The notes under the pieces were generated by a model, which had not been told where the DNA came from, did not search any database, and saw only the letters and a list, made by a program, of their open reading frames with translations. DNA of 60,520 bases from a virus. Lineage: Duplodnaviria > Caudoviricetes. Below, one piece after another: positions 10,834 through 59,341 of the stretch. Made by a program: the position numbers and the translations under genes. Positions within the stretch are counted from its first letter, which is position 1; the number at the start of each line of letters is the position of its first letter. The stretch covers positions 1 to 60,520 of the IMG/VR virus record IMGVR_UViG_3300001683_000034. One strand, 5' to 3'.

Positions 10834-10834
10834 T

Positions 10835-17101: not shown

Positions 17102-17102
17102 T

Positions 17103-43091: not shown

Positions 43092-45265
43092 TACTCATCT
43101 CCCTTGTCGGTATCTATATCTTCATCTATCACACATGTGGTATTTAACCGTATATGTGGACCAGAAACATCTCTTTTGCTTACCGAAGCAATCGGCATAA
43201 CCACTTCTTTCTCTAGATCAAGTGTTCCATCTTCGTTAATGCTATTATACATAACTCTGATATTCTTCCTACCAGCCTTCTGTAACGTAGTCATGTATCC
43301 GTACTTATAAGCAAAGTCCGCGGTTTGGACTGTCATCATATCTAACTCAACTTTTAATGCGTCAAAGATGCTAGACGCCTTAGCCGGGTCTAAGTCAAGT
43401 TTTACTTCATTATCTAAATCTATCTTCAACATTATCATAGCCTTACGATTGAGCTTTATCAACGGTATACGTATGTGCTTAGACAAAAATAGACTGATAT
43501 CGTCCTTAGATACTAGCTTATTGGTATGTATATCTTTGCGTGCTTTCTTTGCTCCGCTCTCTATTTCAGGCAATAAGTACTTTTTTGCATCAGACATCAT
43601 TGCATCTGTTTTTAATATTAATATTTTCTTTATATCATTAGACTTAGTGACCTTGTTGTACTTACCGTTTCTAGCACTAAGGCCACATATATCCTCACAC
43701 ATTTCTGACCATGAGTAAGAGAACTGATTGAATAGCTCTTTCATCATTAGACTATTCTGAGCAACTGATTTTTTAGTAGTGGCAGTACCATGCTGGTTAG
43801 TCGGGCGAGCTTTATTGGTGACGGTGTTGGCGGATCCTTGTGAACTGCCTGGGCCCTGTTCGTTCATTGCACCAATCTCGGCTAATGGCTTAGTATATAA
43901 CTCGTGGAAAGTATTCTTTCTATCTCCATCAGCATACGGTTCTCGATTGAGATAGTCCGTTCTTAGCTCATCCTCTGTTATAGCATTCTGCATAAATAGC
44001 TGAATACCATGGTTCTGATGAGCTCTAGCCTCTTCTCTATCTATGTCTGGGAATCTCAGAGAGACCCGTACGTCGCTGACTAGGTTAAATCCACCCTCTA
44101 ATAGTATGATATCAACTATCTTGGCGGTGAACATTTCAGAAAATACATTCTGTATTTCTGAACATGCATCGACTAAATTCTTTGTAACCGTCTGCGCAGT
44201 AGCCTTATTCGCAGTATCGCCTCTGCCTAGGTCTATTCCAGATAACCTCAGGCCGCCAAGAACCCTACTCTCAAAGTGAGAGAGATAGGGTTCTAAATCT
44301 AATACCTGGCCTTCTGTGCCAAGCATGTTTATCTCTACTCTTTCAGAGGTGACTAGCCCACCCTCTGGAGGTAATGCATCTACTTGTGCTCCAATAACAT
44401 CTACCTCTGAGAGTGTCTGTCCGTCTGGAGATGTTATATATCCAGCTGGCTTATCTTTTGATCCTACCTTGGCATGGAATAGAGGGAATGTATGCTTGTG
44501 GGTTACTAGCTCGGCTAGTTCCTCTAGCCTTCTCAAAGCTCTGATGTCTTCAAGCACAGGCACTATATATGGTGTACCAAAGGTAAAGCCAGACTTTCTA
44601 TCCAAATGGAAGTGTACAACGTCGGAAGCCCTGAACTTTCTAGTTTTCTCAGAGTCCCATATCTTTTGTTTCCACTCTACTGGCCTGCCAAAATCATTCT
44701 TTTTTACTGCCATACTAGTAGGATCTGCCGGATACAAGCCAGAAATAGGCTGCATCGTTTTACCAAACATCCTAATAGGAGAGCCACTAGACCTAAGGGG
44801 GTCTCTCTTTATCACAAGGATAGCATTGCCGTAGGCAATCAGGTTAGTCAAAAGCTCTCTTACAATAGCAGAGATAGGTTCGCCAGTTATAAGCTCTATT
44901 TCTTCAAATCGTTTTTTTACATACGCTATAGCTTCTTTATCTGTACCGTGCAGATGCCATCCTTCTTTCATGGATAGCTCTCTGTGCCTTCTGACAGAAG
45001 CAGCAAAGAACGATTCTACATCTAGCGTCTTGCCTATTTCCCCAAGGTTGTACATTGGAGTGATATAGTTGCCGTCTCCCCCTAGACTGGGGTAGCCTCT
45101 TGCTGTTAGGCTCGTTTTATAGTAGAGCGTAGATACAGCTTGTCGCGGAGATTCCTTAACAGTAGACTCTACGCTAGAAGGCTTAGTCTTGCGGACAAGC
45201 CTAAGATCCTCTTGCTCTGGTTTAGTAGTAGAGAACACTGACGCTATTCTACCGAGAAGACCCAT
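43091..45265 (-). CDS. Portal protein
   Basis: LIAYGNAILVIKR..LYPADPTSM..DVVHFH..FGTPYIVPVLEDIRALRRLEE..LGRGDTANKATA..NAITEDELR. Lies between terL and the protease. Confidence 0.82.
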   Translation of the reverse strand: MGLLGRIASVFSTTKPEQEDLRLVRKTKPSSVESTVKESPRQAVSTLYYKTSLTARGYPSLGGDGNYITPMYNLGEIGKTLDVESFFAASVRRHRELSMKEGWHLHGTDKEAIAYVKKRFEEIELITGEPISAIVRELLTNLIAYGNAILVIKRDPLRSSGSPIRMFGKTMQPISGLYPADPTSMAVKKNDFGRPVEWKQKIWDSEKTRKFRASDVVHFHLDRKSGFTFGTPYIVPVLEDIRALRRLEELAELVTHKHTFPLFHAKVGSKDKPAGYITSPDGQTLSEVDVIGAQVDALPPEGGLVTSERVEINMLGTEGQVLDLEPYLSHFESRVLGGLRLSGIDLGRGDTANKATAQTVTKNLVDACSEIQNVFSEMFTAKIVDIILLEGGFNLVSDVRVSLRFPDIDREEARAHQNHGIQLFMQNAITEDELRTDYLNREPYADGDRKNTFHELYTKPLAEIGAMNEQGPGSSQGSANTVTNKARPTNQHGTATTKKSVAQNSLMMKELFNQFSYSWSEMCEDICGLSARNGKYNKVTKSNDIKKILILKTDAMMSDAKKYLLPEIESGAKKARKDIHTNKLVSKDDISLFLSKHIRIPLIKLNRKAMIMLKIDLDNEVKLDLDPAKASSIFDALKVELDMMTVQTADFAYKYGYMTTLQKAGRKNIRVMYNSINEDGTLDLEKEVVMPIASVSKRDVSGPHIRLNTTCVIDEDIDTDKGDE

Positions 45266-47183
45266 CTGATTCCTTTAACATCTTTTTAATCTCTTCGTCG
45301 CTAATTTCCATTTTACAAGTCTTAAGTATGTTCCTTATCACTTCTTCTGATGTTTCTGGCTGATTAAACTTATCAATAGCCGGAATAGTCGTAGTATTGC
45401 TCAAACCAAAGAGGCTTGAGCTTTGACTAACTCTTATCGGCTTATTGTCAGAAAAGTACCTTTCTCGTAAATCATCAGGAATATCAATTGTATACTGATT
45501 CGACGGTATACTTAACCCACCTACAACCTCATCTATCATATTATCTACAACATCGTCAGACATATTATAGCATTCATCAAGAGACTGTTCTAATATAGAG
45601 GATAATATCATGTCCATATGGCTTAGTCCTCTTAGCTGCCATTTCGTCTGTACGGTCTCAATATTTCTCCATACTATGATAGACTGCTGTTTTTCGCTAT
45701 CTGTCTCATTAGATCCTATTTCACTAACAATATCTTCGACAAAATCTAACATAGATTTAAACATATCATGGAATAATTTGCATTTTACATAAAGATTTTC
45801 CATTATAGGTGTATTCATTCGAGAAAACCAAGAATTATTTATCCTTCCTATGACGCCCATCACCATATGCTTTATATGTTTTATATACATAAAATCTGCA
45901 TTTGCACCAGATAGCTGTGCAACAGTTTTCTTTGCGTACCTGGCGGATAAATTTACAGAGAGTGTTTTTGACGCGGCTCTTAAAACTACCTTAATTAGCT
46001 TAATAGTTTTTTTATCTGCGATACCGTGCTTAGCCATTATTCTGAATAAGCAGCATATCTGATCTTTAGTAACTCGATAGGCGCTAGTTTGTGCTACATT
46101 GTTTACAAGAACTCTTTGTTCATTCGAATTGAATCTCATGAATTGAGATGTTGTAGCACACATATTTTTAAAATTATTTTTAAAGGCTGCTAGAAACTCA
46201 TCCTTCAAATGGTCTGATACATAATCTTCATTGCCTGATCGAGGTAACTTGTCTCCAAGATTCAGTCTTATATTAGCTTCATGAGAATATGTAGGATAAT
46301 ACCTATACATATCTACCGATGTATTTCTAGATTGCCTAAGACCAACATAGTTTATCCAGAGATCATACTTTGGATCTAAAGATGGATAGATATATCCAAT
46401 CACATAATCTAATATTATTTTATAATCATTTTGAGATATTTTCTCTAAGGCTAACTCATCCATTCTACTAAATGTAAATTCTTCTGGGGCAGATGAAGAA
46501 ACAGAAGATGATGATGAACCACGACCAACATTACGAATTGCCTGAATCAACTCCTTGTTTAGCACATCTATCGCAGAGGCAAAAGCAATAGCAATGACTA
46601 ATTTCATTGCACCATACGCAGCTCCTTCTGGATGTTCTGATGGTGGAGATATTTTAAGTATCTCTGGCACATTAAATATATCTTGAAATTTATGTATTGC
46701 ATAATTCAATAAATAGACTGAATCAAACATTAAAAGATCATTATCGGAAATTCCATGAATAATCCTGTGTTTAAATCTCCTAGTAGTAGTAGAGTCTAAA
46801 CTAGGATTACCTGTCATCGATTCAGAAATAGTTAGAGTGTAATTAAGTTGAACCTGCTCATACTTTTTTACTGCAGTAAGAAATAAATGAAAACTTATTC
46901 TTGCGCCATCCGCTTCCGATGGATCTTTTCTTGCTACGGCGGCCCTTACGTCCTGCACGATAGGATCTACAGGGACATGCGTTGCCCTACACTTCTCATC
47001 TAATAAGTTAAGCAACTCATTAGATAACATTATATTATCTTTTATATCACTAAATATCTCCTGCACTTCCTTTTCTGCTTCGTCCTCTATATTCGTATTA
47101 ATTACTGGCGACCCCTTAGGAGGATCTTCAGTAAGACTCCGCTCTCTTTCAAAGGGTTTTGGTTTTTTAGAGAATATACCCAT
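45249..47183 (-). CDS. Hypothetical protein between the terminase and portal genes
   Basis: 644-aa helical-looking ORF overlapping both neighbours. No motif recognised. Confidence 0.55.
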   Translation of the reverse strand: MGIFSKKPKPFERERSLTEDPPKGSPVINTNIEDEAEKEVQEIFSDIKDNIMLSNELLNLLDEKCRATHVPVDPIVQDVRAAVARKDPSEADGARISFHLFLTAVKKYEQVQLNYTLTISESMTGNPSLDSTTTRRFKHRIIHGISDNDLLMFDSVYLLNYAIHKFQDIFNVPEILKISPPSEHPEGAAYGAMKLVIAIAFASAIDVLNKELIQAIRNVGRGSSSSSVSSSAPEEFTFSRMDELALEKISQNDYKIILDYVIGYIYPSLDPKYDLWINYVGLRQSRNTSVDMYRYYPTYSHEANIRLNLGDKLPRSGNEDYVSDHLKDEFLAAFKNNFKNMCATTSQFMRFNSNEQRVLVNNVAQTSAYRVTKDQICCLFRIMAKHGIADKKTIKLIKVVLRAASKTLSVNLSARYAKKTVAQLSGANADFMYIKHIKHMVMGVIGRINNSWFSRMNTPIMENLYVKCKLFHDMFKSMLDFVEDIVSEIGSNETDSEKQQSIIVWRNIETVQTKWQLRGLSHMDMILSSILEQSLDECYNMSDDVVDNMIDEVVGGLSIPSNQYTIDIPDDLRERYFSDNKPIRVSQSSSLFGLSNTTTIPAIDKFNQPETSEEVIRNILKTCKMEISDEEIKKMLKESDGSSR

Positions 47184-49222
47184 CAGATGTTACCTCGACC
47201 AAACCGGTTGCCCCTAGGAGTGTTACCATGATATCTTGTTCTACCTCGAACTGAATCTCCTCTAGAGCGATTAGTGGCCTGTCTCCTAGCGACATACACT
47301 CCTATGTCGTTTCCTCCTACTAATGTTTCTTTATCTTCATCTGTCCTTTTCTCTGGCTTTAGATCTTTTTGCATTTTCTTACTGAATTTCTTTGCCTCTT
47401 CTAAATCTATTTGACGCTCAGTGATATTACTCAACTCGGGAAATGGTGAGTCGTTATCATGGTCACTGCCTACACCAATAGAATAAGCAATATCCATAAC
47501 GTGTTCTACCTTTTTTATATCACTAAACTCTAAGATATGACCCATGATACATAGCATCCATGCGGTAAGAGTATGCTCGTAGTCTTGAGAATAAGTAGGT
47601 ACACCACTTGGACTATACTTAACTATCTTGAATGCTCGCATTTGCTGAACAATACCTATATTTGCGAAGGGTATCTCACTGGGTACGATCCTTGTAGTTG
47701 TATCTTCACCTGCAGGCATTAATACCTGCTTCATCTCCATTGTTCGGCATGACGCATCTACCATGAACTGTTTTACTGGTTTCTTGATAGGCATACCGCT
47801 GACTGGATCGGTTATCTCTATGTTAGAGTTCATAGTCATGGGCTTGACTCGCTCTTTGTAGTTGGTGTGTTCGTTGGGGTAATCCATATCATATTTCCAC
47901 ATCATCTCAACTTGGACGTGTCCATATCCAGCATCTACATAGATATATGCAGTTTGATTACCCCATACTTTATCAAGCTCCATTATTTTCTTGATAGCTT
48001 CTATCTGCTGAAATTCCTGAGTCCGTATTATATGTTTGTCTACTGTTTTATACATGAGTCTACCATCTACATTCATGGCCTCAGTAACAATTATATGTGT
48101 GCCTGTAGTCTTACCCCAGTCTACTCCTATAACGTACTTAGATTCTGTATGTGGGATACAATCTTCATAAGTATAGTCAGCCAGGCACGCGTTAACGTCC
48201 TCACTTCTAAACACACCTTCAGCTTCGTCACCAAACTCAGCAAGAAACTCTCGTTCGTATCCAGTCTTTGAGTAGTTCTGCTTAAACATATGATCTACTT
48301 TTGGAGTCCAACTAGGAGATTCCGCAGATATAAACCAGAACTCTTTAAAGCCTTGGCTCTTGTCACAACACCAGTTATATAGTTTTTTACGTATTCCGGT
48401 AGGTGTGGATGAGACAATGAGTTCGCAAGTCGGATGAGAAGCCATTATCGCCATGATTACTTCGATATCGCTGTCATTGATATAATCAACTTCGTCCATG
48501 ATAATAAAATCTGCGTCCTGACCACGAACCTTATCGGATTTTGCGCCCGAATGTGCACCAGAAGACCAGCCTCGAATAACTCCACCTGAGCTGAATTCAA
48601 TCATTTGTGGATTAAGGACATTCCTCTTAATCATGCCTGGCATATTTAGTGTGGAGGACCGGCCTATAAAATCACGCATAGTGTCAAAAATCTTTGCGAC
48701 CTGTGGCTGATACGGGGCGAGTACTAATATCTCAAATTGCCTATCAGTTAATCCACCATTAGTAAATAATTTCCAAAGAGCAAGAACACTCATCGATTCA
48801 GTTTTACCCACACGACGTCCTGCACGAATGGCCTTAAACTGAGATGAACATCGCATGACCTCTTTCTGATACCATCTAGCCTCCCAGCCAAATTCAAACT
48901 TAGCCCAAGCAACTGGGTCTTGTAGCATTTTATAGTTCTGGAACTCTTCGTCAGATAAGCCTTGATTTTTCATCTTCTTGGCTAGCAGCCGATAGTCGCC
49001 TTCACAGGTAGGTATGAATGGTTCGGAAGTAAAACCCTTGCTATGCATATCTTGATAGTAATCTACACACTTTCTGCAGAAATGACAATCTCGACCAAGC
49101 ATAGGCTTATAGTCGGATCCTTTATAGTCATCCATTGGCCTATATTTTTCACCAAAATCAATGCCTATTTTAATGGGCTTTTCGCCCTCAATCCTAATCT
49201 CATTCTTCTTTTTATCAGACAT
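47183..49222 (-). CDS. terL: Terminase large subunit
   Basis: ARWYQ, Walker A AGRRVGKT, RGQDADFIIMDE (Walker B), SSTP, EFLAEF, nuclease GVDWG, YVDAGYG. Start placed at MSDKK (49222); the track gives 49240. Confidence 0.92.
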   Translation of the reverse strand: MSDKKKNEIRIEGEKPIKIGIDFGEKYRPMDDYKGSDYKPMLGRDCHFCRKCVDYYQDMHSKGFTSEPFIPTCEGDYRLLAKKMKNQGLSDEEFQNYKMLQDPVAWAKFEFGWEARWYQKEVMRCSSQFKAIRAGRRVGKTESMSVLALWKLFTNGGLTDRQFEILVLAPYQPQVAKIFDTMRDFIGRSSTLNMPGMIKRNVLNPQMIEFSSGGVIRGWSSGAHSGAKSDKVRGQDADFIIMDEVDYINDSDIEVIMAIMASHPTCELIVSSTPTGIRKKLYNWCCDKSQGFKEFWFISAESPSWTPKVDHMFKQNYSKTGYEREFLAEFGDEAEGVFRSEDVNACLADYTYEDCIPHTESKYVIGVDWGKTTGTHIIVTEAMNVDGRLMYKTVDKHIIRTQEFQQIEAIKKIMELDKVWGNQTAYIYVDAGYGHVQVEMMWKYDMDYPNEHTNYKERVKPMTMNSNIEITDPVSGMPIKKPVKQFMVDASCRTMEMKQVLMPAGEDTTTRIVPSEIPFANIGIVQQMRAFKIVKYSPSGVPTYSQDYEHTLTAWMLCIMGHILEFSDIKKVEHVMDIAYSIGVGSDHDNDSPFPELSNITERQIDLEEAKKFSKKMQKDLKPEKRTDEDKETLVGGNDIGVYVARRQATNRSRGDSVRGRTRYHGNTPRGNRFGRGNI

Positions 49223-49973
49223 GCATGAACGTCGCTTCATTGCCCATGGCTGATCTTGTATTCATTTGTGAGTTATGGATAGCCGCCATAGCAGTTTGTC
49301 TTTGAGTGTGACTAGCTCTTGTTTGAGCAAAGCCTTCACCAAGATCTGAATCTGCAGGTGTTTCTCTATTGCGCCTTTCATAAGAAAATGTGGTCATTCC
49401 CTGTATAGCTCCACTTGCAGCAGCAAAACCCATGCTAAATAAATCATTTACTATCCATGCTGAAGACAAGGATCTAAGACCTAGGCCAAAACCCATCCTT
49501 GTTGCATCTCCTATAAAACTTGCTGACTGAGATGCAGTTCCAGCCTTATTTACTTCTTTAAGAAATCGTGATTCACTGGAACCAATAAACCATGTACTGG
49601 GGCTAAGAAACCGCCTAGGCCTAGTCACAGGGCGATTCGCCCAAGGTTTATTTTTCTGATACATCCCTCCTACGTACATGTCAGACGGTCTCGGTGCATG
49701 GACGCGTGGATACGCGTCATGCACCATACTCTCTAAGGCAGATTTCCCAGATCCTTGTACAAAACTGGAGGGCATAACTCCAGGTATCATACCGAGAAGA
49801 GGTCTGCCTCCCGTGCCTATACCCTGTCTACCCATAAGTCCGGCGCCAAGACTTTCCATGCTTATCGCTATGGTAAGATCGGCAACTAAGTTTCCTATGC
49901 CGAAATTCTCATGATCCGATGCAGTTGATATAAACTGAAATCCATGGGAATCTATTGGTCGATTATATTGCAT
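49215..49973 (-). CDS. Hypothetical Gly/Ala-rich protein (possible internal virion protein)
   Basis: 252 aa with hydrophobic Gly-rich segments and C-terminal TQRQTAMAAIHNSQMNTRSAMGNEA. Confidence 0.5.
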   Translation of the reverse strand: MQYNRPIDSHGFQFISTASDHENFGIGNLVADLTIAISMESLGAGLMGRQGIGTGGRPLLGMIPGVMPSSFVQGSGKSALESMVHDAYPRVHAPRPSDMYVGGMYQKNKPWANRPVTRPRRFLSPSTWFIGSSESRFLKEVNKAGTASQSASFIGDATRMGFGLGLRSLSSAWIVNDLFSMGFAAASGAIQGMTTFSYERRNRETPADSDLGEGFAQTRASHTQRQTAMAAIHNSQMNTRSAMGNEATFMHV

Positions 49974-49974
49974 A

Positions 49975-51189
49975 TTACATGTTCATTCTATGTGAATGCA
50001 GTGTTGCATTGTAGCTTATGTTACTGAAACTTCTCCCCTGAGGTCTTGGTCTAGCCGTCTGTGTGTTCCTCAGATTGCCTCTTTTTAACGATGTCATACC
50101 AACAGCTGCACCAGCAGCTAATCCAGATATAGTTCCTCCAGCCATTGCTCCACCCATATAAGTCATCGCTGGATCTATTTTTCCCCAGATAGAACCACGA
50201 CCGACCATAGCTCCGGCCATCATACCAGGTAATTTAAGTACAGGTCCGACTAGACTTTTCATAGTATTAAAATTAGAAGCAGTTTTCATTGCGTATGACT
50301 GTTTTATATGGGATTCATGTTTGACTAATCTGCGCTCAGCGAGATTAGCCGACTTAGTAAGACTTTTTTCTGTCTTTAACGCATGTTTAGCAGATTTACC
50401 AAGAGACATAACGGATGTTGCATCTCTAGCGGCCCCCACAGTTTGCTCATGCCTGGTAAGCGCTGGACGCAGGTTTTCTATTTGTGGAACACCGTGACTA
50501 GGTGGCCTATGAGGTCGAGCACCCCATCCATATTTCATCCTCAGGTTACCGGCCAATTTTTCGCCCCGCCTAAGACGTCCTCTCCATGATTGTCCTCCTT
50601 GACCACGTCCAGTTTTAAGTTGAGTCCTAGCACCCGAGGTGGATCTAAGCATTGCCATATCATCGGCACCAGGAGCTGTAGATTTTATGCGATTCCTTAT
50701 ATTATTTACTGCAGCTGCGCCTGCCCCCTTGCTCCCAAATCTTCCACTCGCCAGTATCGCAGTTCTACCAATAGCAGTTACTCCCGTAATACCTGCTGCA
50801 GCAGTAACACCAAATTTGCCTACGCCCGCCATGAAATTACCAAAGCCGGACATTCTGTCTCCGAATGTATCTTGGTATCCAGATATGCCCGCGTTAAGGG
50901 CAGTCGCCGTAATTCCTATGCCTGCGAGCTTGGTAATTTGATGGCCCATAGTCATACCGGCGGCTGCACCAGCCTGGTAATTCATAACACCAACGACCAT
51001 CTCCTCGGTTGCACCGGTAAGAGTTTGCCTACGTGCACCTTGGCTCTTGTTAAAAGCATCTATTCTTCCACGAGTTGACTTTCGTGCTGCTGCTGAATTT
51101 AAACCAGCACCTCGTATAATCCCACGCTCTTGCTTAAGTGACCCTACTATTTTACGTAGAAGTCTTCCTGCGGCGCCTGCTACTGCCAT
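49975..51189 (-). CDS. Hypothetical basic Gly/Ala/Arg-rich protein (possible internal virion protein)
   Basis: 404 aa with very few acidic residues and several GA-rich hydrophobic stretches. Confidence 0.5.
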   Translation of the reverse strand: MAVAGAAGRLLRKIVGSLKQERGIIRGAGLNSAAARKSTRGRIDAFNKSQGARRQTLTGATEEMVVGVMNYQAGAAAGMTMGHQITKLAGIGITATALNAGISGYQDTFGDRMSGFGNFMAGVGKFGVTAAAGITGVTAIGRTAILASGRFGSKGAGAAAVNNIRNRIKSTAPGADDMAMLRSTSGARTQLKTGRGQGGQSWRGRLRRGEKLAGNLRMKYGWGARPHRPPSHGVPQIENLRPALTRHEQTVGAARDATSVMSLGKSAKHALKTEKSLTKSANLAERRLVKHESHIKQSYAMKTASNFNTMKSLVGPVLKLPGMMAGAMVGRGSIWGKIDPAMTYMGGAMAGGTISGLAAGAAVGMTSLKRGNLRNTQTARPRPQGRSFSNISYNATLHSHRMNM

Positions 51190-51202
51190 TTTTAATACCT
51201 AC

Positions 51203-51766
51203 CTAGAATGGGCCAAAATTATTACCGGATCTTATCGCATTAACTGCGGCTAATCCTCCATAACCTACACCAAACATCGCTCCAGGGCTTGCTAATGTTT
51301 TACCACCAGATCTTAAAGCCGTAGCTGTAATGGCAGCATGTGCACCAAGTGTGGCGCCGGCTTTTACAGTTCTGCTCACAAAGTTATCTTCGCCAAGAAC
51401 CATGGGAGCTAATCCAAATGCCGCTATTGCTCCAGCACCTATTGTTCTAGTAGATGCTCTAACTGCGTCATTGTCGTCTTTTATAAATTCCCCAAAAGAT
51501 GTCCGTTTCTTCGGGTCTTCTGATAGTCTAGCTCCTATCTTCTTTCCCTTAAAGAATTCCGATAGACTCATGGCTGGATCGGTACTTGAACCTCGTTTGC
51601 TTCCAACCAAATCCTTCATTGCTTTTGCGTTTCCAAATAAATTTGGATTCTTTTGAGCCGTATTAGCTTTGCTTAACTGGACAGGATTAATATCGTCGAC
51701 CAGATTTAGCAAAAAGTTTCCAAGCTTCACACCACCATACTCATGTATCATTGCAGGTAGTCCCAT
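51203..51766 (-). CDS. Hypothetical Gly/Ala-rich membrane-like protein
   Basis: 187 aa, GGAGG RBS, hydrophobic C-terminal segments. Confidence 0.5.
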   Translation of the reverse strand: MGLPAMIHEYGGVKLGNFLLNLVDDINPVQLSKANTAQKNPNLFGNAKAMKDLVGSKRGSSTDPAMSLSEFFKGKKIGARLSEDPKKRTSFGEFIKDDNDAVRASTRTIGAGAIAAFGLAPMVLGEDNFVSRTVKAGATLGAHAAITATALRSGGKTLASPGAMFGVGYGGLAAVNAIRSGNNFGPF

Positions 51767-51775
51767 TTTATCCTC

Positions 51776-54700
51776 CTATGTCGTTTGTCTCTGTCTGGAT
51801 CCGTTAGGATGACTGACGCGTGTTCTATATTTTAAAGCATCATTACCATGTAGCGCTGCGTGTTTTCCTTGAGATCTTATTTTAGACTTGCCCTTGAATT
51901 GCTGTGTATTAGTAAGGCTCGTGTGGTTTTCTTGCCTATACACACGTGGCTTTATATGTTTTCCATAATCACCTAGCCCCTTTACGGCAGAATAATCTGG
52001 TGGAGCCATCATTCCGGATGGTAACCCCATGCCCATCCCTACGGCGTTCTGCTGATATTTATCCTGAGTAGCCCTAGATCGGATGTCTTTCACTGACTGA
52101 TATACAGAGTAATTCTGTGTAACATGTCCCTGCCGTCGCAGATCAGACATCATGCCTCTTACGGCACTAACATCTTTTGTCAGTCTTTGTATATCTGTAT
52201 TAATCTTAAAATACTTTATTTTATTTGGATCATTTCTCGCGGCATATCCGATTAACGCGTATGGCTGCTTTAATGCATATGCATAAAAGTTGGCCTGAGA
52301 CACGTGTGCTTCTTTGGGGGATTTTAGGCGTTGCAGCGCCTCAATGTCTTCAACTGATTTTATTTCTAATGGAACACCAGATTTAAGCACCAAGTCTATG
52401 TGCCCCATGACATCCAACTCAGGACTATGTACAACATGCTCATGGGCTTGAGCTATGTCTTTCTTTAGATACTCTGATTCTATTATATTATGTATATTAG
52501 TACCCTTCTCAGATGAATTTGTATAGTCATCAAAAGAAGATCTACCTAGCAGTATATCTCTGAGCCGATCTCCTCTATATCCGAGCATAGAGGATCTAAT
52601 AGTGTTACTACCATATTGCGTACCATATTGTAAGCTAGTCATGGCCTGCGATGAGAAATGATCAACACCAGAACCGAAGGAGTGCAAGAGTGGATCGCCT
52701 GAAGGAGAAACACCACTTATCATATTATGTTTAGAGCCTGGATGTTTTATGGCGCCATTTCTATTGCCTATCAGTGTGAGTCCGGCAAGAGTTAACGCAG
52801 CAGTGGCAAAGACTCCACCTCTTCCTTTTAGCCCCCTAGGTCTTCCCTCTAGTGCTGGTCGACTACTCGTTGCTGCCTCGACTGCAGTATCTCCTGCATT
52901 GCTTATCGTTTGTGGTTCAGGTATAAATTCCCCTATTCTCTCTGAACCTATATTTTGTATCTCTTCAGCAATTATGTACCTATCTATTGCGTTATGTGCG
53001 CTTCTTGTCTTGGAGTGCTCAAGAAATTTCCCCATAAGTCGACCGGAGTGCCCCTCTTCTCCACGAGGATTTTTTAGATGCTCATTAAATACTCTTGTAT
53101 CCACATCCATCATTCTTTTAACGTCGACAGAAGCATCGTGGGCAGACCCCCTAGAGTCGAGCTGCTCTATCTCGAACCCCAGTGCATTTGTCTGATGATT
53201 ATGTGTTTCAGTATAGTTATCTTTTGCAAAGATAAGGCTCTCTGCTACTCCTCCTTGCGCACCAAGCGAATTCCCCATAACGGTGTCAAACCCAGTTGCC
53301 TCGCGAACTCCCATTTCTAGTGTCTCTCTGAGAAGCGAACCCTCTCGTGCAAAACTAAGTTTTCTGGATTGGTCAAATCCCATTATCCCGCCGGTGCCCT
53401 CAGTGTGTCTCCATAGTCTATCGAGCATATTTTCTAAGCCATGGAGATGTCTTAGAGGGTTAAGATGCCTTCTAAAAACTTCCATACTGCTAGCACCGGT
53501 AGCATGCTCAATCTCACCAACTTCTTTGATCATTTTTGCTGCGGTATTAACTATTAGTCCCTCATCCGACTGCCAATACTTAGCTACTCGCTCAGGTGAC
53601 ATATCTCCGCGACCACGGTTCATTCTTTGGAAGAATATCTCTGCTAGATTTCGATGCGTTGGCTTATTGCCCCCTGCTCCTCGATAACTAGCAACATCGT
53701 CAGCAATGGCTCTTATCTGAGTATTGCTTTTTACATAATGGCTTTTAGCTTCAGTTCTATTTTCGCTAAGCTCTTTTAGAACACGATCTGTAATCTGCTC
53801 TCTATTGAGTCCACCATGAGTCAATGATTCTTCTACATGCCTGTGGCTTATATTTTGAACATTATATTTCTCATCATTTACTAAGTTCCAAAACTGAATA
53901 TCTTTTACTTTATCTGCCGCATCAACAGTTCTTATAAGCATATCAGAATGAGTACCATTCGTTCCTACAAATAAAGTCTTAAATATTTCTTTCGCAGATA
54001 ATAATTTATCTTCTCCTCCAGAAAGATTACCGGGGAACAGAAGCTTTACGTTTTTACCATATGTGTCAACTTGGTCTGCCCACTTTGGTAAGTCATAATT
54101 AGTATTCCAGGTTACGATCTCAGCTGTTTTTCCCTGAGCTTTTGCCTCTGAAGCGAAACGCATCATCTTTGTCAGCGACTCTGAAACAAATTTCTCAGAT
54201 GTGATTAGATTCTCTCTACCATACTTAGCTTCAAATACACTTCTACCGAGTACAGTATTCAGAGTTGATCCTACAAGATTAACTCCGATACCAAAACTGC
54301 CTCCTGTAGGATTGGCTAATCTATTCGCTGTAATATTCTTTAATACAGATGGATTTCTTACTACGAACTTTCCTTGAGGTCCGTCTACTCCGCTCATCGC
54401 CTTTTTGGCTATTTCATCCTCAGGACTAAGATTATCGCTAGTCATAATTCGATCTATATCGATATGTTCTATACTCCCTTTCTTGTCTTTATACTCAAAG
54501 AGTAGCTCTGCTTCTTTTGGCGTTATTCCCTTAGGAATATCAAGCTCCATATGTTTATGAAACGCTTGACCGGTTCTTATCTCTTCTTCAGTTCCACCAT
54601 AAAACTGTGTAATCTGAACAGGCGCAGTCATTTTATGCGTAGGCATACCCCCATATCTAGATATGCCACCGCCCCTAGAAAGTTCAGTAACCTTCTTGCC

Positions 54701-56326
54701 TTTTACAATTTTATCTTTATGCTCAAGGCCTATATCAGTCGCTTCAACATCAAGATAAAATCTATGATTACCTGCCGATGAATTCCGTGGTACTGATCTT
54801 GTTGAGTCTGGTGGTAGCGGTAATTCCGGAAATGCAGGTGTAGATCGGTGGCCCCCGATTATGTCTATTCCTGCCCCACCTATTCTCTGCTCACTTAATC
54901 CCAGCTGCCTTTTCCCTGAACTATTTACTGTAGTATGAGGTCTTCCTTCTGTATAATCCCCTACTACTTGATTAGCTGCCTGAGATTTTTGTCGACTACC
55001 AACAGTCACTGTATTTCTATTTTTAAGTTCTTTCATTTGCTCTTGAGTAGCCCGTGTTCCTCCAAGCTCTCTCTCGATTAGACGAGAGTCCCAAGAGGAA
55101 TTTGATTCGGATTTTTTTATACGAGCAACTGTTCCAAGCTTTTCCTTTCCAGTAAGATTTATATCTACTGATCCCTTTGAACGAATCGGCTTGAAATTTT
55201 TATACGCGTCGTCAATGATTCCTACGACATTGCCAGGCACCGCATCTAGTTTCCTCCCACCTGTGGCGCCACCCATTATCAGTTCTGAGAATAAATCGCC
55301 CTGTCCTTTGCCTACTGTAAGTCGATGCTCTTTAAGATTATCTGTAGTTACTTTCTCAAGAGCAATGTCTCTATCAGTCCATAATTTTAGATCATATCCT
55401 GCATCACGCAATACTTGTAACTTTTTAGTCAGCGGCTCATTTACTTTAAGCTTACTGTATTTAGGGTCAGATTGCATTTTCTCTAGATATTTTTCTGGAT
55501 CCTTTCGATAAAGCTTATCTCCAGTATCATCGAAAAGAGTGCTATCTATATCTACCAATATAGTGCCACGACTGCGGGGAGGTGGATTTATCGTGTCTGC
55601 TACTGTGCCACGCTGAGTCGAGGTTGATGCAGGTGTCTTGGGTCTCGCTTTCCCCTGCTTCACTCGTTCCAGCGTTTCCTTTTCGGTCTTGATACTCTCT
55701 ATGTATTTTTTAGACTCTTGTGCAGTTTCAGCCCGCTCGAACATTAGTTCTTCTGGAGCTATATTAGCTTCATGTCTCATCTGGGCATGAAACCGTTTCT
55801 TTTGGACTTTCTTATCTTTTGCGGAGGTAGTCTTATCGTAATGCTCGCCGGGCTCGAAGAGAGTCAATTTTGGTTTGCTTTTTCCCTCAAGTTCAAGCCG
55901 CACCTGCTTCTGCCACTTCTCCGTCTTTTTTCTCTCGGCTAGATGTTCTAGGGCTGCATCCGAATGTGGTAGCAGCCGTTCTCGTGCTGCTTCTTCTGGG
56001 GATAAAGATAGTCGTCTTCGGTACTCTGCTTCTCGCCTTGCAGTTGCAGCTTGTCGTGCTTCCAGCTGCTGCTGCTGCAGCTCGGGCCCCCTCAGCTCTT
56101 TCGCTGCAGCCTGTCTCGCTGGCTCCTGTTTTACTGCAGCTCGCTCGGCTATAACTTTCTCCACTGCTGCCTTAGGTTTTATTCCCGCCGCTTCATCTGC
56201 AAGGCGCAGCATCTCTGCTTTAGTTATCTCGCCGGCATCTTTTCTTGCACGAAGTTCGTGAGATATAGACCTTGTTCCAGGTATTATATCTCCCGGTTTC
56301 CATGGTGGTAATTCCGGAATTGGCAT
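51776..56326 (-). CDS. Multidomain protein: HAD-like phosphatase + DEDDh 3'-5' exonuclease + PD-(D/E)xK (Cas4/RecB-like) nuclease
   Basis: HAD: ILVDIDSTLFD / LWTDR / IIDD. ExoI-III: FYLDVEAT / TWNTNYDLP / AHDASVD. RecB-like: GTNIHNIIE / GHIDLV / LEIKS / QANFY. Confidence 0.7.
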   Translation of the reverse strand: MPIPELPPWKPGDIIPGTRSISHELRARKDAGEITKAEMLRLADEAAGIKPKAAVEKVIAERAAVKQEPARQAAAKELRGPELQQQQLEARQAATARREAEYRRRLSLSPEEAARERLLPHSDAALEHLAERKKTEKWQKQVRLELEGKSKPKLTLFEPGEHYDKTTSAKDKKVQKKRFHAQMRHEANIAPEELMFERAETAQESKKYIESIKTEKETLERVKQGKARPKTPASTSTQRGTVADTINPPPRSRGTILVDIDSTLFDDTGDKLYRKDPEKYLEKMQSDPKYSKLKVNEPLTKKLQVLRDAGYDLKLWTDRDIALEKVTTDNLKEHRLTVGKGQGDLFSELIMGGATGGRKLDAVPGNVVGIIDDAYKNFKPIRSKGSVDINLTGKEKLGTVARIKKSESNSSWDSRLIERELGGTRATQEQMKELKNRNTVTVGSRQKSQAANQVVGDYTEGRPHTTVNSSGKRQLGLSEQRIGGAGIDIIGGHRSTPAFPELPLPPDSTRSVPRNSSAGNHRFYLDVEATDIGLEHKDKIVKGKKVTELSRGGGISRYGGMPTHKMTAPVQITQFYGGTEEEIRTGQAFHKHMELDIPKGITPKEAELLFEYKDKKGSIEHIDIDRIMTSDNLSPEDEIAKKAMSGVDGPQGKFVVRNPSVLKNITANRLANPTGGSFGIGVNLVGSTLNTVLGRSVFEAKYGRENLITSEKFVSESLTKMMRFASEAKAQGKTAEIVTWNTNYDLPKWADQVDTYGKNVKLLFPGNLSGGEDKLLSAKEIFKTLFVGTNGTHSDMLIRTVDAADKVKDIQFWNLVNDEKYNVQNISHRHVEESLTHGGLNREQITDRVLKELSENRTEAKSHYVKSNTQIRAIADDVASYRGAGGNKPTHRNLAEIFFQRMNRGRGDMSPERVAKYWQSDEGLIVNTAAKMIKEVGEIEHATGASSMEVFRRHLNPLRHLHGLENMLDRLWRHTEGTGGIMGFDQSRKLSFAREGSLLRETLEMGVREATGFDTVMGNSLGAQGGVAESLIFAKDNYTETHNHQTNALGFEIEQLDSRGSAHDASVDVKRMMDVDTRVFNEHLKNPRGEEGHSGRLMGKFLEHSKTRSAHNAIDRYIIAEEIQNIGSERIGEFIPEPQTISNAGDTAVEAATSSRPALEGRPRGLKGRGGVFATAALTLAGLTLIGNRNGAIKHPGSKHNMISGVSPSGDPLLHSFGSGVDHFSSQAMTSLQYGTQYGSNTIRSSMLGYRGDRLRDILLGRSSFDDYTNSSEKGTNIHNIIESEYLKKDIAQAHEHVVHSPELDVMGHIDLVLKSGVPLEIKSVEDIEALQRLKSPKEAHVSQANFYAYALKQPYALIGYAARNDPNKIKYFKINTDIQRLTKDVSAVRGMMSDLRRQGHVTQNYSVYQSVKDIRSRATQDKYQQNAVGMGMGLPSGMMAPPDYSAVKGLGDYGKHIKPRVYRQENHTSLTNTQQFKGKSKIRSQGKHAALHGNDALKYRTRVSHPNGSRQRQTT

Positions 56327-57090
56327 TATTCACCAAACACTTCTGGCGCAATGGTCTTAGAATCGTTATGCATCTCAATCTCTGTAGCTGTAATATTGCC
56401 GTCAGAATCTTGAGAAGCCATCCGTATCTTCTTGGCCTTTTCCATGAGGTTAGCTGCGACTTTTGAAGGATCAGCATATCCTTTGGAAGCTGCATCTGCT
56501 TTGGACTTCCTTGTAGTGAGGAGCTCACGCATAAGCCTTAGTTTTGTTTTAACCAGTTTTTCGTAGAATTCGGCGGCCTTGGAACTCTCATTACTATAGA
56601 AAGGCTGGCCTGCTGGGCTATACCCGCTTATAACTCTTCGTTCTATCTTTGGATCCATGGCAAGTTGCATGGCGGCTCTCGCCTCTAACGTCATCTGGAA
56701 TACTATCTGGTCTACTAGCATTCTGTCATATGCAGAAGAAGGATCTTCTGGATTTATGCCTGCCGCCTCGCTGAACTGATCTGTCCACTGTCTTATCTGG
56801 TAGGACTCTACAGGACAATCACCTCCAAATGGACGATCTATCTTATTGCGTACCAAAGGGCATTTCTCAAAGTAGGGGCACTGCTCATCTCTACATACCA
56901 TGGGGCCTGCCATGGGAGCAAAGCCAAACTTAACAGATTCTGTATATCTGGCAAGATTTCCTCTTTGGACTTCTGTGAGAGCAGTTTCTTCCTTGCCAGT
57001 CAGGCTATTGTCATTTATTACTACTTCAGGTAAGTTCTCGGCGTTTTCAGGAACAGTAACCCCAGGACCGAAGAGCTCGTTTGAATTCAT
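56326..57090 (-). CDS. Putative terminase small subunit-like protein with a Cys cluster
   Basis: MVCRDEQCPYFEKCPL..GDCPVE plus a helical C-terminus (KLRLMRELLTTRKSK). Near the head of the packaging cluster. Confidence 0.45.
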   Translation of the reverse strand: MNSNELFGPGVTVPENAENLPEVVINDNSLTGKEETALTEVQRGNLARYTESVKFGFAPMAGPMVCRDEQCPYFEKCPLVRNKIDRPFGGDCPVESYQIRQWTDQFSEAAGINPEDPSSAYDRMLVDQIVFQMTLEARAAMQLAMDPKIERRVISGYSPAGQPFYSNESSKAAEFYEKLVKTKLRLMRELLTTRKSKADAASKGYADPSKVAANLMEKAKKIRMASQDSDGNITATEIEMHNDSKTIAPEVFGE

Positions 57091-57292
57091 CTTTGTTCAC
57101 TCTCATCTCGTTGCCAAAAATCAACCTGAGGCAGGTTCTAGCGTGCATGCAATTCTTACCCCTAGCTGCGGCTACACTTAGATATGTTTTGGTTAACTCC
57201 GGTTGATTACTATAGATGTATTGCATTGCTTCATCTTTGCCGTCCACCAACTTTGCAAATCTTTTAGGTATATATTCTACACTATTAGACAC
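57047..57292 (-). CDS. Hypothetical protein
   Basis: 81 aa, GTG start with GGAG upstream, 44-nt overlap with the next gene. Confidence 0.4.
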   Translation of the reverse strand: MSNSVEYIPKRFAKLVDGKDEAMQYIYSNQPELTKTYLSVAAARGKNCMHARTCLRLIFGNEMRVNKDEFKRALRSWGYCS

Positions 57293-57306
57293 TAATCTAC
57301 TCCGTT

Positions 57307-57344
57307 AAAAAATAGAGCCCCACTGCTATTACACAATGGGGCTC
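57307..57344 (-). terminator. Rho-independent terminator after nrdJ
   Basis: Minus strand GAGCCCCA..TGGGGCTC stem followed by TATTTTTT. Confidence 0.8.
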
Positions 57345-57367
57345 CAAAAGTGAGGATATGTGACATG

Positions 57368-59341
57368 CTATGTTAGCTCGCACCGGTCTCCGGTGCATGC
57401 CCATGTCTTGGCGCCCTCGGTAGTATCTTCAGTTTCGTACATACTGAGATAACGATAATCTATCTCTGGTAAGTTTGCAAGCATTTTATTATATTCTTCT
57501 TCAGTGCACTCTTCGTATGGCGCTTGCTCATACTTACCACCATCATATGGTAAGAATGATACACCATTTATTATGTCCCAGTTTTTATATACCCAATTGC
57601 CTACTTCGAACCACTCATTATCTTTTACATAAACAGTGCAAGACGCATTATGCTCACACCAGTTCTCTTGTATCTTCTTGTATTGCTCCAGCTGCTCCAT
57701 GGCAGTCATGTCTCCTCGTAGGACAGAACCATCAGGAGATTTTACAGGGAAGGATACAACCCAGGTGATAACATCGTCTGCAGACCAGCTTTTTCCTTCC
57801 TTATATATAGCGCATGCTTCTGCGTCACCACCCTCAGCTCTCGCCCAGTCTTCTTTCCTTTGACCAGTTTCAGGAGACATGGGGACCTTTTGATCCTGTA
57901 GCATCCTGAATAATGGGTCAGTAGCAGATATACGATATCTGCGTCTATAGTAGCTTGCATACCTCGTGTGAATACCAGAAGAAGAGTCGACTAATTGGGA
58001 TACGGTTCCGGAAGGTTTTACACAAGTTATAGCAGCAGGCATACTCACGCCCAGTAGTTCAGACGCATGTTTGGCTATTTTAATTGCTTTCCTTTTCATT
58101 GCGCGCAGCGCGTCGGCGCTTAATAGTGTTTTGTTATCCATGATGCCTGTCAACGAGACTCCAAGAAGTCGTTCCTCCTCACAGTTCTCTTTCCACTTAT
58201 CGTTTAAATACGGGAAATCGGTGAAGCAGGACTGTATCACACCTATCCATACGGCGGTCTCTACCTTTTTAAACAGGGTATCCAGGTCATCCTCGGCTCG
58301 TACCACGACCTCGGACAGATTACAGAACTCCTGGTGGCGTAAGCTTATCTCTGCACACGGGTTAGTCCCTGAAATCAAGTAGCCTTGTCTGCGTTTTGGA
58401 GATCTTGTCCTAACAGATTGAACATTAAATATACCCCGTTCCCCCGTCCCAGAGGATGCCAATGTACTCCACTCCTTGAGGAAGTCAGTAGCACTGGGCT
58501 TCTCTAGATACACAGCACTGTTATTAGCCATTGCACGTCTCAGTGGAAAGGGCCACACCTTAGCACTAGCCATTTCTTTGTCAGATAAGTCAGATAAACT
58601 AATTTGACTCGATCTCCGTACACCTCCCACAACAACAATCTCTGCTATCTGGTTCAGTATGTCATGACACTCCAGAGAGGTCAGTTTACGCCCCTGCGCA
58701 TTTTGGAATACCTCACGCATGAATGCATGAAGCTGTACGAGGGGTTCGGGTCCAGAGGACCTACCACCCATTGTATAGAGACGAGATCCTTTAGGTCTTA
58801 TGTTTGTATAGTCCATGTCGACGTCGTGTCCTTCATAGAGGGAGTCGACGAGAAGTTTAACGGATTTAGTCCATCCGCCGCGAGAGTCCTTAATTGTATG
58901 TTGTTTTGTATATGCACCGTCGCGGAAGGTGCCTACCACTGGGAGCTTTTCTATATGTTTAGATTCAACAGAGAAGCCATACCCTGTACCACACATTAGT
59001 ATGTATAGTGCTTCTGAGAAGGCTATTGGGTCATCAATGACCTGGAAGGAGCAGTTATACATGCAGGTATTGTCTTTTTCCGCCGCGGGGCCTGCAGCCC
59101 AGAGCGATCTCATCGATGGCATCACCTCGAACCCCAGTATAGATGAATGAATCTTTTCGTAAGTCTTAAGCGGAACCCTGTCCCCCATGTGTTTACGTAT
59201 GAAATTTACGTACCTGTCTGTGGTCTCACTCCATGTTTCCCTACGGTTTTCCTCGTCTCTCCACCTCGAGTATGTACGCATATATACGAATTCCGCCGCG
59301 TCGTTCGAGAAGCCTGTGTCTAGTCCATCCTGAGTAAGCAT
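57368..59341 (-). CDS. nrdJ: Class II (adenosylcobalamin-dependent) ribonucleotide reductase
   Basis: RTYSRW..RRETW, MPSMRSLW..YNCSF, LMCGTGYGFSV, VVVGGVRRSSQISLS, GTNPCAEI, RLLGVSLTG, TCVKPSGTVSQL, C-terminal CTGDRC. Confidence 0.93.
   Translation of the reverse strand: MLTQDGLDTGFSNDAAEFVYMRTYSRWRDEENRRETWSETTDRYVNFIRKHMGDRVPLKTYEKIHSSILGFEVMPSMRSLWAAGPAAEKDNTCMYNCSFQVIDDPIAFSEALYILMCGTGYGFSVESKHIEKLPVVGTFRDGAYTKQHTIKDSRGGWTKSVKLLVDSLYEGHDVDMDYTNIRPKGSRLYTMGGRSSGPEPLVQLHAFMREVFQNAQGRKLTSLECHDILNQIAEIVVVGGVRRSSQISLSDLSDKEMASAKVWPFPLRRAMANNSAVYLEKPSATDFLKEWSTLASSGTGERGIFNVQSVRTRSPKRRQGYLISGTNPCAEISLRHQEFCNLSEVVVRAEDDLDTLFKKVETAVWIGVIQSCFTDFPYLNDKWKENCEEERLLGVSLTGIMDNKTLLSADALRAMKRKAIKIAKHASELLGVSMPAAITCVKPSGTVSQLVDSSSGIHTRYASYYRRRYRISATDPLFRMLQDQKVPMSPETGQRKEDWARAEGGDAEACAIYKEGKSWSADDVITWVVSFPVKSPDGSVLRGDMTAMEQLEQYKKIQENWCEHNASCTVYVKDNEWFEVGNWVYKNWDIINGVSFLPYDGGKYEQAPYEECTEEEYNKMLANLPEIDYRYLSMYETEDTTEGAKTWACTGDRCELT

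Follow-up and report, generated by a model that had tools for sequence, protein, structure and literature searches.

Introduction

T4 endonuclease VII and T7 gp6 are phage enzymes that serve packaging and concatemer handling. The internal-protein locus of T4 is highly polymorphic, and we know of no nuclease among the characterised encapsidated internal or ejection proteins. Giant phages carry many ejection proteins (PMC5694885), and the word "nuclease" does not occur in the accessible part of that paper. Polyvalent proteins, as described in the accessible part of Iyer et al. 2017 (PMC5512222), are long multi-enzyme polypeptides encoded among virion genes, with variable domains and a predicted delivery with the DNA; in that part "RecB" is not mentioned and "exonuclease" appears once. 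Here we describe P0001, the product of one long open reading frame (ORF) in the virus record IMGVR_UViG_3300001683_000034, of which the whole 60,520-nucleotide stretch was analysed (the window). P0001 shares with the polyvalent type its three predicted enzymatic domains, their variable complement and a late-operon context.

Judged by its sequence, P0001 appears to be a modular enzyme in which both nuclease active sites are intact and a phosphatase is optional. We favour the reading, with a probability of roughly 45%, that it is a late-made, probably capsid-carried end-processing nuclease that acts on DNA ends at the next infection. The coordinates of the features are listed in Table 1.

Table 1. 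Features of P0001 and its surroundings in the window (res, residues of P0001).
Feature	Position	Strand	Basis
Whole ORF (P0001), 1516 aa, ATG start, single open frame	51776..56326	-	ORF translation
N-terminal leader, res 1-75, in conserved backbone block	56102..56326	-	96.7% nt identity to L001
Charged helical segment, res 76-245	55592..56101	-	comparison with L001/L002
Predicted HAD-type phosphatase domain, res 246-445	54992..55591	-	motifs, PHROG, Pfam, Atlas neighbours
DEDDh 3'-5' exonuclease fold with large insertions, res 515-1110	52997..54784	-	alignment and model
Hydrophobic helix, small-residue-rich, basic residues on both sides, res 1166-1192	52751..52831	-	sequence
Conserved linker, res 1193-1245, with SPSGDPLLHSFGSG	52592..52750	-	family alignment
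Predicted Cas4-like (RecB-family) PD-(D/E)xK nuclease, res 1246-1400	52127..52591	-	motifs and profiles
Basic C-terminal tail, res 1401-1516, SKIRxQ and HPNxSR motifs	51779..52126	-	family alignment
Hairpin resembling an intrinsic terminator (14 pairs, T run), at the end of the ribonucleotide reductase unit	57313..57346	-	
o254, operon gene 1, four-Cys zinc-ribbon-like pattern	56326..57090	-	homologue of 0305phi8-36 gp112
o187, Gly/Ala-rich, cysteine-free, ends GNNFGPF	51203..51766	-	weak match to 0305phi8-36 gp114
o404, Gly/Ala-rich, cysteine-free cassette protein	49975..51189	-	
o252, Gly/Ala-rich, cysteine-free, overlaps TerL start	49215..49973	-	C-terminus weakly matches gp115
Large terminase subunit TerL, downstream cassette end	47183..49240	-	
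Divergent island, ~6.6 kb, 65-80% nt identity or unalignable vs L001/L002	49496..56103	.	

Domain Architecture of P0001

A first-pass annotation of the window had proposed that one ORF fuses HAD, DEDDh exonuclease and Cas4/RecB-like nuclease domains, and all the motifs that it quoted were found in P0001 at the places it gave. The HAD motifs were DIDST at residues 259–263 (window 55538–55552), WTDR at 316–319 and IIDD at 370–373. The exonuclease motifs were DVEATD at 526–531 (54734–54751), WNTNYD at 740–745 (54092–54109) and HDASVD at 1063–1068 (53123–53140). The hydrophobic stretch VFATAALTLAGLTLIG occupied residues 1172–1187 (52766–52813), and GHID, LEIK and SQANFYAYA were located within residues 1308–1351 (52274–52405). 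A word-seeded search of 5.8 billion clusters gave 17 homologues of 967–1934 residues. The exonuclease residues D526, E528, N741, D745, H1063 and D1068 were identical in 18/18 aligned family sequences, as were D1311, E1321, K1323, Q1344 and Y1348 of the C-terminal nuclease. Because 17 homologues exist and the residues chosen in the first-pass annotation are the invariant ones, the observation goes beyond chance. With its motifs placed and its catalytic residues invariant, the fusion was borne out.

In the exonuclease, D526/E528 form ExoI, N741/D745 form ExoII and H1063/D1068 form ExoIII, with the H-x4-D spacing of the "h" subtype. Among 16 more divergent family members, ExoI and ExoII were kept in 16/16 and ExoIII in 14/16, and the two members without ExoIII were sequences shortened by trimming during the analysis. 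D805 was also considered as a catalytic residue. It is invariant in the close family and not kept in the divergent members, and it was not counted.

The AlphaFold2 model of residues 510–1110, built from an alignment of 17 sequences, had a predicted local distance difference test score (pLDDT) of 73.5 and a predicted template modelling score (pTM) of 0.77, with a low-confidence loop at model residues 20–62. When the model was compared with structure representatives by VIA-align, 50/50 listed rows were DnaQ-like exonuclease folds by title. They included the exonuclease domain of S. aureus DinG (9ii8_A, Z 10.5), Pol III epsilon (1j53_A, Z 10.3, root-mean-square deviation 3.2 Å, 167/174 residues aligned, model range 12–573), a TREX1 homologue (9mrc_A, Z 10.2), ExoI (1fxx_A, Z 10.1), Cap18 (Z 9.8) and Cas2-DEDDh (Z 8.6). 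The aligned core of approximately 170–190 residues was stretched over model residues 8 to approximately 580–590. Since the core alignments run across model residues 8 to about 580 and take in all three motifs, ExoI, ExoII and ExoIII are placed in one fold. The first-pass annotation had made its call depend on the convergence of these residues in a structural model, and in the predicted structure, by its DnaQ-like alignment, they appear to converge. The unusual length it had remarked on was also confirmed: a core of about 180 residues lies over about 570 residues, with insertions at approximately residues 594–734 and 819–1059 (the latter mostly helical) that amount to about 400 residues in total. 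Pfam RNase_T (PF00929) did not match P0001 at the gathering score. The compact 609-residue relative P0044, which carries the same C-terminal module, passed the RNase_T cut-off (24.4 vs. 24 bits).

The C-terminal nuclease shows the motifs G-H-I-D1311, E1321-I-K1323 and S-Q1344-A-N-F-Y1348. The profile phrog_1706 ("CRISPR/Cas system associated"; short palindromic repeats that are clustered and regularly interspaced) matched residues 1271–1374 of P0001 with an E value of 4e-13, and it was matched by 16/18 family members. The NCBIfam Cas4 model TIGR00372 matched 5/5 tested members (E 1e-5 to 8e-4, 19.3–25 bits), and its curated cut-off of 65 bits was reached by 0/5 of them. A profile of 19 short nuclease-module proteins found only two PDB chains at E <= 10, namely 4r5q_A (0.002) and 4ic1_A (0.19), and in this alignment the D, ExK and QxxxY motifs line up with those of the Cas4 4r5q. 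The entry 4ic1_A is deposited as an "uncharacterized protein", and we take it to be S. solfataricus Cas4. P0001 has no cysteine, nor has any of the 18 close-family sequences of its alignment (18/18), so no iron–sulphur cluster is expected. The phrog_1706, TIGR00372 and PDB profile matches thus support, by sequence, the PD-(D/E)xK domain without iron–sulphur cysteines that the first-pass annotation had described. No cas gene was found among the neighbours (ribonucleotide reductase (RNR), o254, three Gly/Ala-rich ORFs, TerL and portal), where no CRISPR-specific scan was made. We classify the domain, on its motifs and profiles, as a RecB/Cas4-type nuclease that fails three features of Cas4 membership, namely the cysteines, the score and the association with cas genes.

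Ahead of this nuclease stand the hydrophobic helix and the linker. A conserved helix of small residues with basic flanks precedes the nuclease in 18 diverse relatives, and it raises the alternative that P0001 stays unpackaged and is tethered at the inner membrane. There it might degrade competitor-phage DNA (superinfection exclusion) or host DNA, as a phage-side analogue of SNIPE, a nuclease of host defence. In the accessible part of the SNIPE report (PMC13190303), a single-pass anchor keeps the nuclease off the cell's own DNA and aims it at entering DNA, which offers a precedent, and the fast divergence described below would suit a phage–phage conflict. The hydropathy speaks against this alternative. 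The Kyte–Doolittle mean over 19 residues is 1.41 in P0001, like the TerL and portal maxima, and the highest value anywhere in divergent relatives is about 0.8–1.0, no higher than the TerL and portal segments. A span at this place would also leave the exonuclease on one side of the membrane and the Cas4-like domain on the other, expression from a late operon would be odd for exclusion, and the folds of SNIPE (GIY-YIG nuclease and DUF4041) are unrelated. We consider a tethered enzyme improbable. The hydrophobic segment reported in the first-pass annotation is present; since its hydropathy is moderate, a membrane span is not secure. As a firm claim, a transmembrane helix was rejected on hydropathy. 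In distant relatives the linker core reads (S/T)DFGSG(R). The linker and the tail are without known counterpart.

In the HAD domain, motif I is D259-x-D261-x-T263, motif II is T317 and motif IV is D372-D373; K359 was picked by eye as a candidate for the lysine of motif III. D259, D261, T263 and T317 were invariant in 8/8 HAD-bearing long forms. The profile phrog_415 ("polynucleotide kinase") matched P0001 with an E value of 9e-6 and was matched by 4/18 members. Pfam Acid_phosphat_B matched 4/18 members below threshold (best 7e-4), and Hydrolase matched 1/18. The Atlas language-model neighbours were viral clusters of Acid_phosphat_B, HAD_PNKP and T5 dNMPase (deoxynucleoside monophosphatase) at 0.91–0.93. 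The HAD call thus appears to hold, more weakly than that of the PD-(D/E)xK domain, and the domain is probably an accessory of the PNKP-phosphatase/T5 dNMPase/class IIIB kind.

The polynucleotide kinase and HAD_PNKP matches could point to a counter-defence enzyme that acts on RNA or nucleotide signals, healing or removing cleaved transfer RNA ends, its HAD domain behaving as the T4 Pnkp phosphatase does, or degrading defence second messengers with its DEDDh domain. Many of the structural neighbours of this domain are RNases or nucleotide-signalling enzymes (RNase T, REXO2, 3'hExo, Cap18). The exonuclease is constantly paired with a RecB/Cas4-type nuclease, which belongs to a DNA enzyme family, and Pfam and PHROG searches found no kinase or ligase domain in P0001. 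Since the HAD domain is present in only 8/18 family sequences, it cannot define the core function. Such a role is very improbable in our judgement.

The N-terminal leader is 90% identical in amino acids to that of P0002. The counterpart of the charged segment lies after the HAD domain in the related phages L001 and L002 (P0002 and P0003), and the segment is also found in P0010, which has no HAD domain. The charged segment containing LLPHSDAALEHLAERKKTEKWQKQVRLELEGKSKPKLTLF showed 88–90% DNA identity to L002/L001, where it stands on the opposite side of the HAD domain.

Family and Distribution

The profile search of 1.84 billion representatives gave 207 matches at E <= 1e-3, 87 at <= 1e-10 and 19 at <= 1e-30. 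Few of them are full-length relatives of the long form in the window. Relatives of 830–1330 residues retain the exonuclease and the C-terminal module, and many of 260–320 residues consist of the C-terminal module alone, with the tail motifs SKIRxQ and HPNxSR kept. The core of exonuclease, helix, linker, nuclease and tail is common to all relatives, down to compact forms of 601–609 residues. Its constant unit runs in the order hydrophobic helix, SPSGD...(S/T)DFGSG(R) linker, nuclease, basic SKIRxQ tail and near-C-terminal HPNxSR, and the nuclease motifs across relatives are GxID, (E/D)xK, SQxNxYA and AR(D/E)DP. Conservation within the protein was highest in the nuclease (68–87% identity), and the exonuclease parts reached 22–57%.

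Upstream of this core the sequences vary. Half of the family sequences (9/18) begin directly at the exonuclease, and P0010 has an extension of 700 residues without HAD. The domain swapping that the first-pass annotation had compared with polyvalent proteins was confirmed by the HAD domain in 8 of the 18 sequences, the charged segment relocated in close relatives and the compact 601–609-residue orthologues. Dozens of proteins of 2000–4900 residues (among P0055–P0162) hold the nuclease core mid-protein. In nine distant full-length, ten short or mid-sized and four giant (1955–2902 residues) relatives, Pfam gave only DUF4406 (in P0030), RNase_T (in P0044) and intein/LAGLIDADG (in the giant P0074).

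In tblastn searches, 50,697 cultured phage records yielded nothing for the whole of P0001 (E 1e-5), its HAD part (E 1) or its nuclease part (E 0.1), nor for the cassette proteins o404 and o252 (E 0.01). That these cultured phages do without the nuclease gene indicates that it is accessory and not part of the core of packaging. No relative came up when 185,579 species genomes were scanned with pattern seeds, so cellular genomes give no prophage or host clue. The viral-contig search with the single proteins P0037 and P0063 found no contig.

Genomic Context and Divergent Island

The virus record is a 60.5-kb fragment with an estimated completeness of 31%, from which the full genome size was estimated to be near 190 kb. 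The fragment encodes a tail sheath, baseplate wedge, major head protein, portal and large terminase subunit (TerL), and its source is an uncultured, contractile-tailed phage. The closest cultured TerL proteins belong to Moorella phage MTATph1 (33.5%) and to members of the Bacillus 0305phi8-36 group (25–31%). Judged by TerL and o254 together, MTATph1 and 0305phi8-36 are the closest cultured relatives.

The stop codon of o254 overlaps the ATG of the large ORF (TAATG), and from o254 through TerL to the portal gene the gaps are no longer than 13 bases or the genes overlap. From the terminator after the RNR unit, the TAATG overlap and the tight spacing, we conclude that P0001 is probably made with the head and packaging genes. 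The first-pass annotation had placed the gene inside the packaging cluster. This is loosely worded: in a transcription unit that begins past the strong terminator behind the RNR gene, the gene stands second, and TerL, which shares the unit, lies four genes downstream.

Twelve related viral contigs showed the order o254-like gene, exonuclease–nuclease gene, three Gly/Ala-rich ORFs and TerL. TerL was downstream of the nuclease homologue in 12/12 contigs, and an o254 homologue was upstream in 10/12, which are all those that reach that far. The order was kept down to 44% TerL identity, including the loci of the compact 601- and 609-residue orthologues. o254, a conserved protein of 254 residues, was always encoded by the first gene in the operon leading to TerL (also in L013, 2239–2967), and it could be the small terminase subunit of the lineage.

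The four cassette proteins, 2359 residues in all, are free of cysteine; TerL contains 13 cysteines and RNR 15, and the window mean is 0.53%. The Gly/Ala-rich cassette ORFs listed in eight loci were all without cysteine (23/23), and the nuclease orthologues in those loci had 0 cysteines in five cases and 2–6 in three. The o187/o404/o252 proteins (49215–51766, - strand) are basic and have extremely conserved C-terminal ends, R(S/P)GDN(F/W/Y)GP(F/M), SFSNIxYNATLHxHRM and AIHNSQ...GNEAxF(M/I)H, which are kept in phages whose TerL is only about 45% identical. The C-terminal end of o252 is conserved across all lineages. In the distant relatives L010 (12122–12655) and L011 (3969–4424 and 4988–5692), small Cys-rich ORFs (10–22 Cys) lie between the cassette genes and look HNH-like by eye.

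A link to virion proteins is given by Bacillus phage 0305phi8-36. o254 is 32% identical to gp112 of this phage (E 9e-24), and the slot between gp112 and TerL (gp117) holds gp113–gp116. In GenBank, the notes on gp113, gp114 and gp116 read "identified as virion protein by mass spectrometry". All of gp113–gp116 are cysteine-free, with a Gly+Ala content of 25–30% in gp113–gp115 and 19% in gp116. gp114 weakly matched o187 (E 8e-4), and gp115 weakly matched the conserved C-terminus of o252 (E 7e-4). The related phage vB_BceM_WH1 has four small genes in the same slot. gp113 was also tried as a relative of the C-terminal module and rejected (hhalign probability 0.3, no relation). The first-pass annotation had called P0001 injected or packaging-linked. 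The late operon, the cysteine-free cassette and the virion proteins in the 0305phi8-36 slot agree with this; packaging itself we infer.

The cassette lies in an island that differs strongly from L001/L002. Its flanks, 41806–49496 and 56103–59013, are 96–97% identical in nucleotides to these phages, and its borders lie within o252 and within the large ORF. One stretch of 419 nucleotides within the island (55703–56121) is an exception, being 88–90% identical and relocated. Amino acid identity is 51% in the nuclease core and 66%, 53% and 59% in the small proteins, and 98–99% in TerL, o644, portal, RNR and o254. That the cassette diverges so rapidly between near-identical phages speaks for a role in conflict rather than for housekeeping.

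The same region bears on another explanation, in which P0001 is a late cytoplasmic DNA-maturation enzyme that is not packaged and works with terminase, trimming or debranching concatemers, or making and resecting the long terminal repeats that are typical of this lineage. Its gene is co-transcribed and tightly coupled with the TerL and portal genes. The terminal repeat of 0305phi8-36 is 6479 bp long, which makes end resection plausible in this lineage. Two exonuclease polarities and a possible 3'-phosphatase would suit end processing, and the nuclease is the best conserved domain of the protein. However, the gene is absent from 0305phi8-36 and from all cultured phages searched, though TerL, portal and o254 are shared, and the low identity within the island is unusual for a housekeeping partner of terminase. 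P0001 also lacks cysteines, unlike the cytoplasmic enzymes of the same window. Since cultured relatives share the packaging machinery without this gene, and the island diverges as described, a core packaging role is disfavoured, and we regard a maturation enzyme as unlikely.

Other features were observed in the window and its relatives. o644 (45249–47183, - strand), in the interval between TerL and portal, is 50% identical to L003 7362–9272, whereas TerL and portal are 92–93% identical; o644 adds a second variable gene to the backbone. In L008 (14840–17935) and L009 (12982–15837), approximately 1.1 kb interrupts the TerL match, pointing to an intein or to insertion of an intron/homing endonuclease; PMC2147016 mentions an intein in the TerL of the BtI1 relative. 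Three giant ORFs of 2508, 2088 and 1555 residues lie at 3307–21770 (- strand). The 2088- and 1555-residue proteins have no cysteine and no PHROG match, and the 2508-residue protein has an endolysin-like segment (phrog_20474) at residues 1297–1466.

Proposed Role of P0001

Under the favoured reading, P0001 would be made late from the second gene of the operon, alongside the three Gly/Ala-rich, cysteine-free proteins. In this phage its exonuclease fold has swollen by about 400 residues, and the HAD domain and the charged helical segment have been added at the N-terminus. We propose that the nuclease is built into the capsid and enters along with the DNA when the next cell is infected. It may then attack free DNA ends from both polarities, the DEDDh domain in the 3'-5' direction and the Cas4-like domain in the 5'-3' direction or endonucleolytically. 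The HAD domain might strip blocking 3'-phosphates or dephosphorylate the released deoxynucleoside monophosphates. The likely substrate would be host or competitor DNA, or the ends left by host defence nucleases.

A wider proposal is more tentative. A deep lineage of large myoviruses of the 0305phi8-36 kind may carry, in the slot from the o254-like gene to TerL, a cysteine-free "cargo cassette" of capsid-internal proteins that is rapidly exchanged. Its largest protein would be a dual nuclease co-injected with the DNA, of a class not described before, in which the conserved helix–FGSG linker joins a DEDDh domain to a Cas4-like domain without iron–sulphur cluster. The basic tail would be capsid-targeting, and extra modules such as HAD would be lineage-specific. 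The nuclease would strike host, prophage or competitor DNA, or ends generated by defence, before phage gene expression.

Several results weigh against a capsid-carried, end-processing enzyme. The case for packaging is drawn from gene order shared with a distant phage in which the nuclease is missing, and from weak pairwise matches, and the absence of cysteines is a circumstantial sign. Some means of keeping a nuclease inactive beside the phage's own DNA would be required, and none is apparent. Module exchange in the absence of conflict-driven selection could account for the island's divergence, and the hydrophobicity of the helix is too weak to argue for membrane insertion during ejection. On the enzymatic side, Pfam gave nothing above threshold in P0001 (only SHOCT, E 0.16). 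Foldseek found no match to the exonuclease model at E <= 0.001 in the PDB or BFVD, and the weak rows above this value included TREX1-like and polymerase exonuclease domains. PDB sequence searches by phmmer of P0001 and by hmmsearch of the long-form profile gave nothing relevant. The AlphaFold model of the C-terminal 359 residues (17-row alignment) was of low confidence (pLDDT 36.6, pTM 0.22).

Comparison with Known Systems

The literature searched holds no description of the three-fold fusion, of the helix–FGSG–nuclease–tail module or of the cassette. All three catalytic folds are textbook. What appears to be new is that they stand in one polypeptide, that the helix–FGSG–nuclease–tail module is common to approximately 200 representative clusters, that the DEDDh domain is swollen to three times its usual length, and that the gene is placed in a cysteine-free, fast-diverging cassette with virion-protein counterparts in a cultured relative. 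The cassette is also a natural experiment in module exchange between near-identical genomes. If packaged, P0001 would be, as far as we know, the first described injected phage exonuclease/endonuclease fusion and a new class among the few proteins delivered with phage DNA. It would then offer a concrete way into the question of how large phages get through the initial minutes of infection, or strike first in them.

The internal proteins and Alt of T4 and the ejection proteins of phiKZ and SPN3US are encoded with head genes and made late, as P0001 probably is. No propeptide or capsid-targeting sequence was identified in P0001. The hallmark domains of polyvalent proteins (MuF, ArdC-N, MPTase, SNF2 and others) were not found by Pfam in the 18 members at E <= 0.1.

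P0001 shares the DxE, NxxxD and Hx4D motifs and the fold with the DEDDh exonucleases Pol III epsilon, TREX1, ExoI and RNase T. Unlike in these enzymes, its core is spread by two large insertions and fused to a second nuclease. The GxhD, ExK and QxxxY motifs are likewise those of the Cas4 (TIGR00372, PF01930, 4r5q, 4ic1)/RecB family; unlike Cas4, the domain of P0001 has no cysteines, and it has a hydrophobic helix and an FGSG linker ahead of it and a basic tail behind it. The DxDxT motif, the threonine of motif II and the DD of motif IV also occur in the T4 Pnkp phosphatase, the T5 5'-deoxynucleotidase and class IIIB acid phosphatases. P0001 has no kinase domain, and its HAD domain is an optional N-terminal addition whose matches all lie below curated thresholds. 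A further parallel is the trimming of prespacers, in which, according to the accessible part of PMC10284694, Cas2-DEDDh and Cas4 use the same two nuclease families to trim DNA ends. In that setting, each serves a different CRISPR system in place of the other, in concert with Cas1-Cas2, whereas P0001 joins both in one polypeptide and has no integrase.

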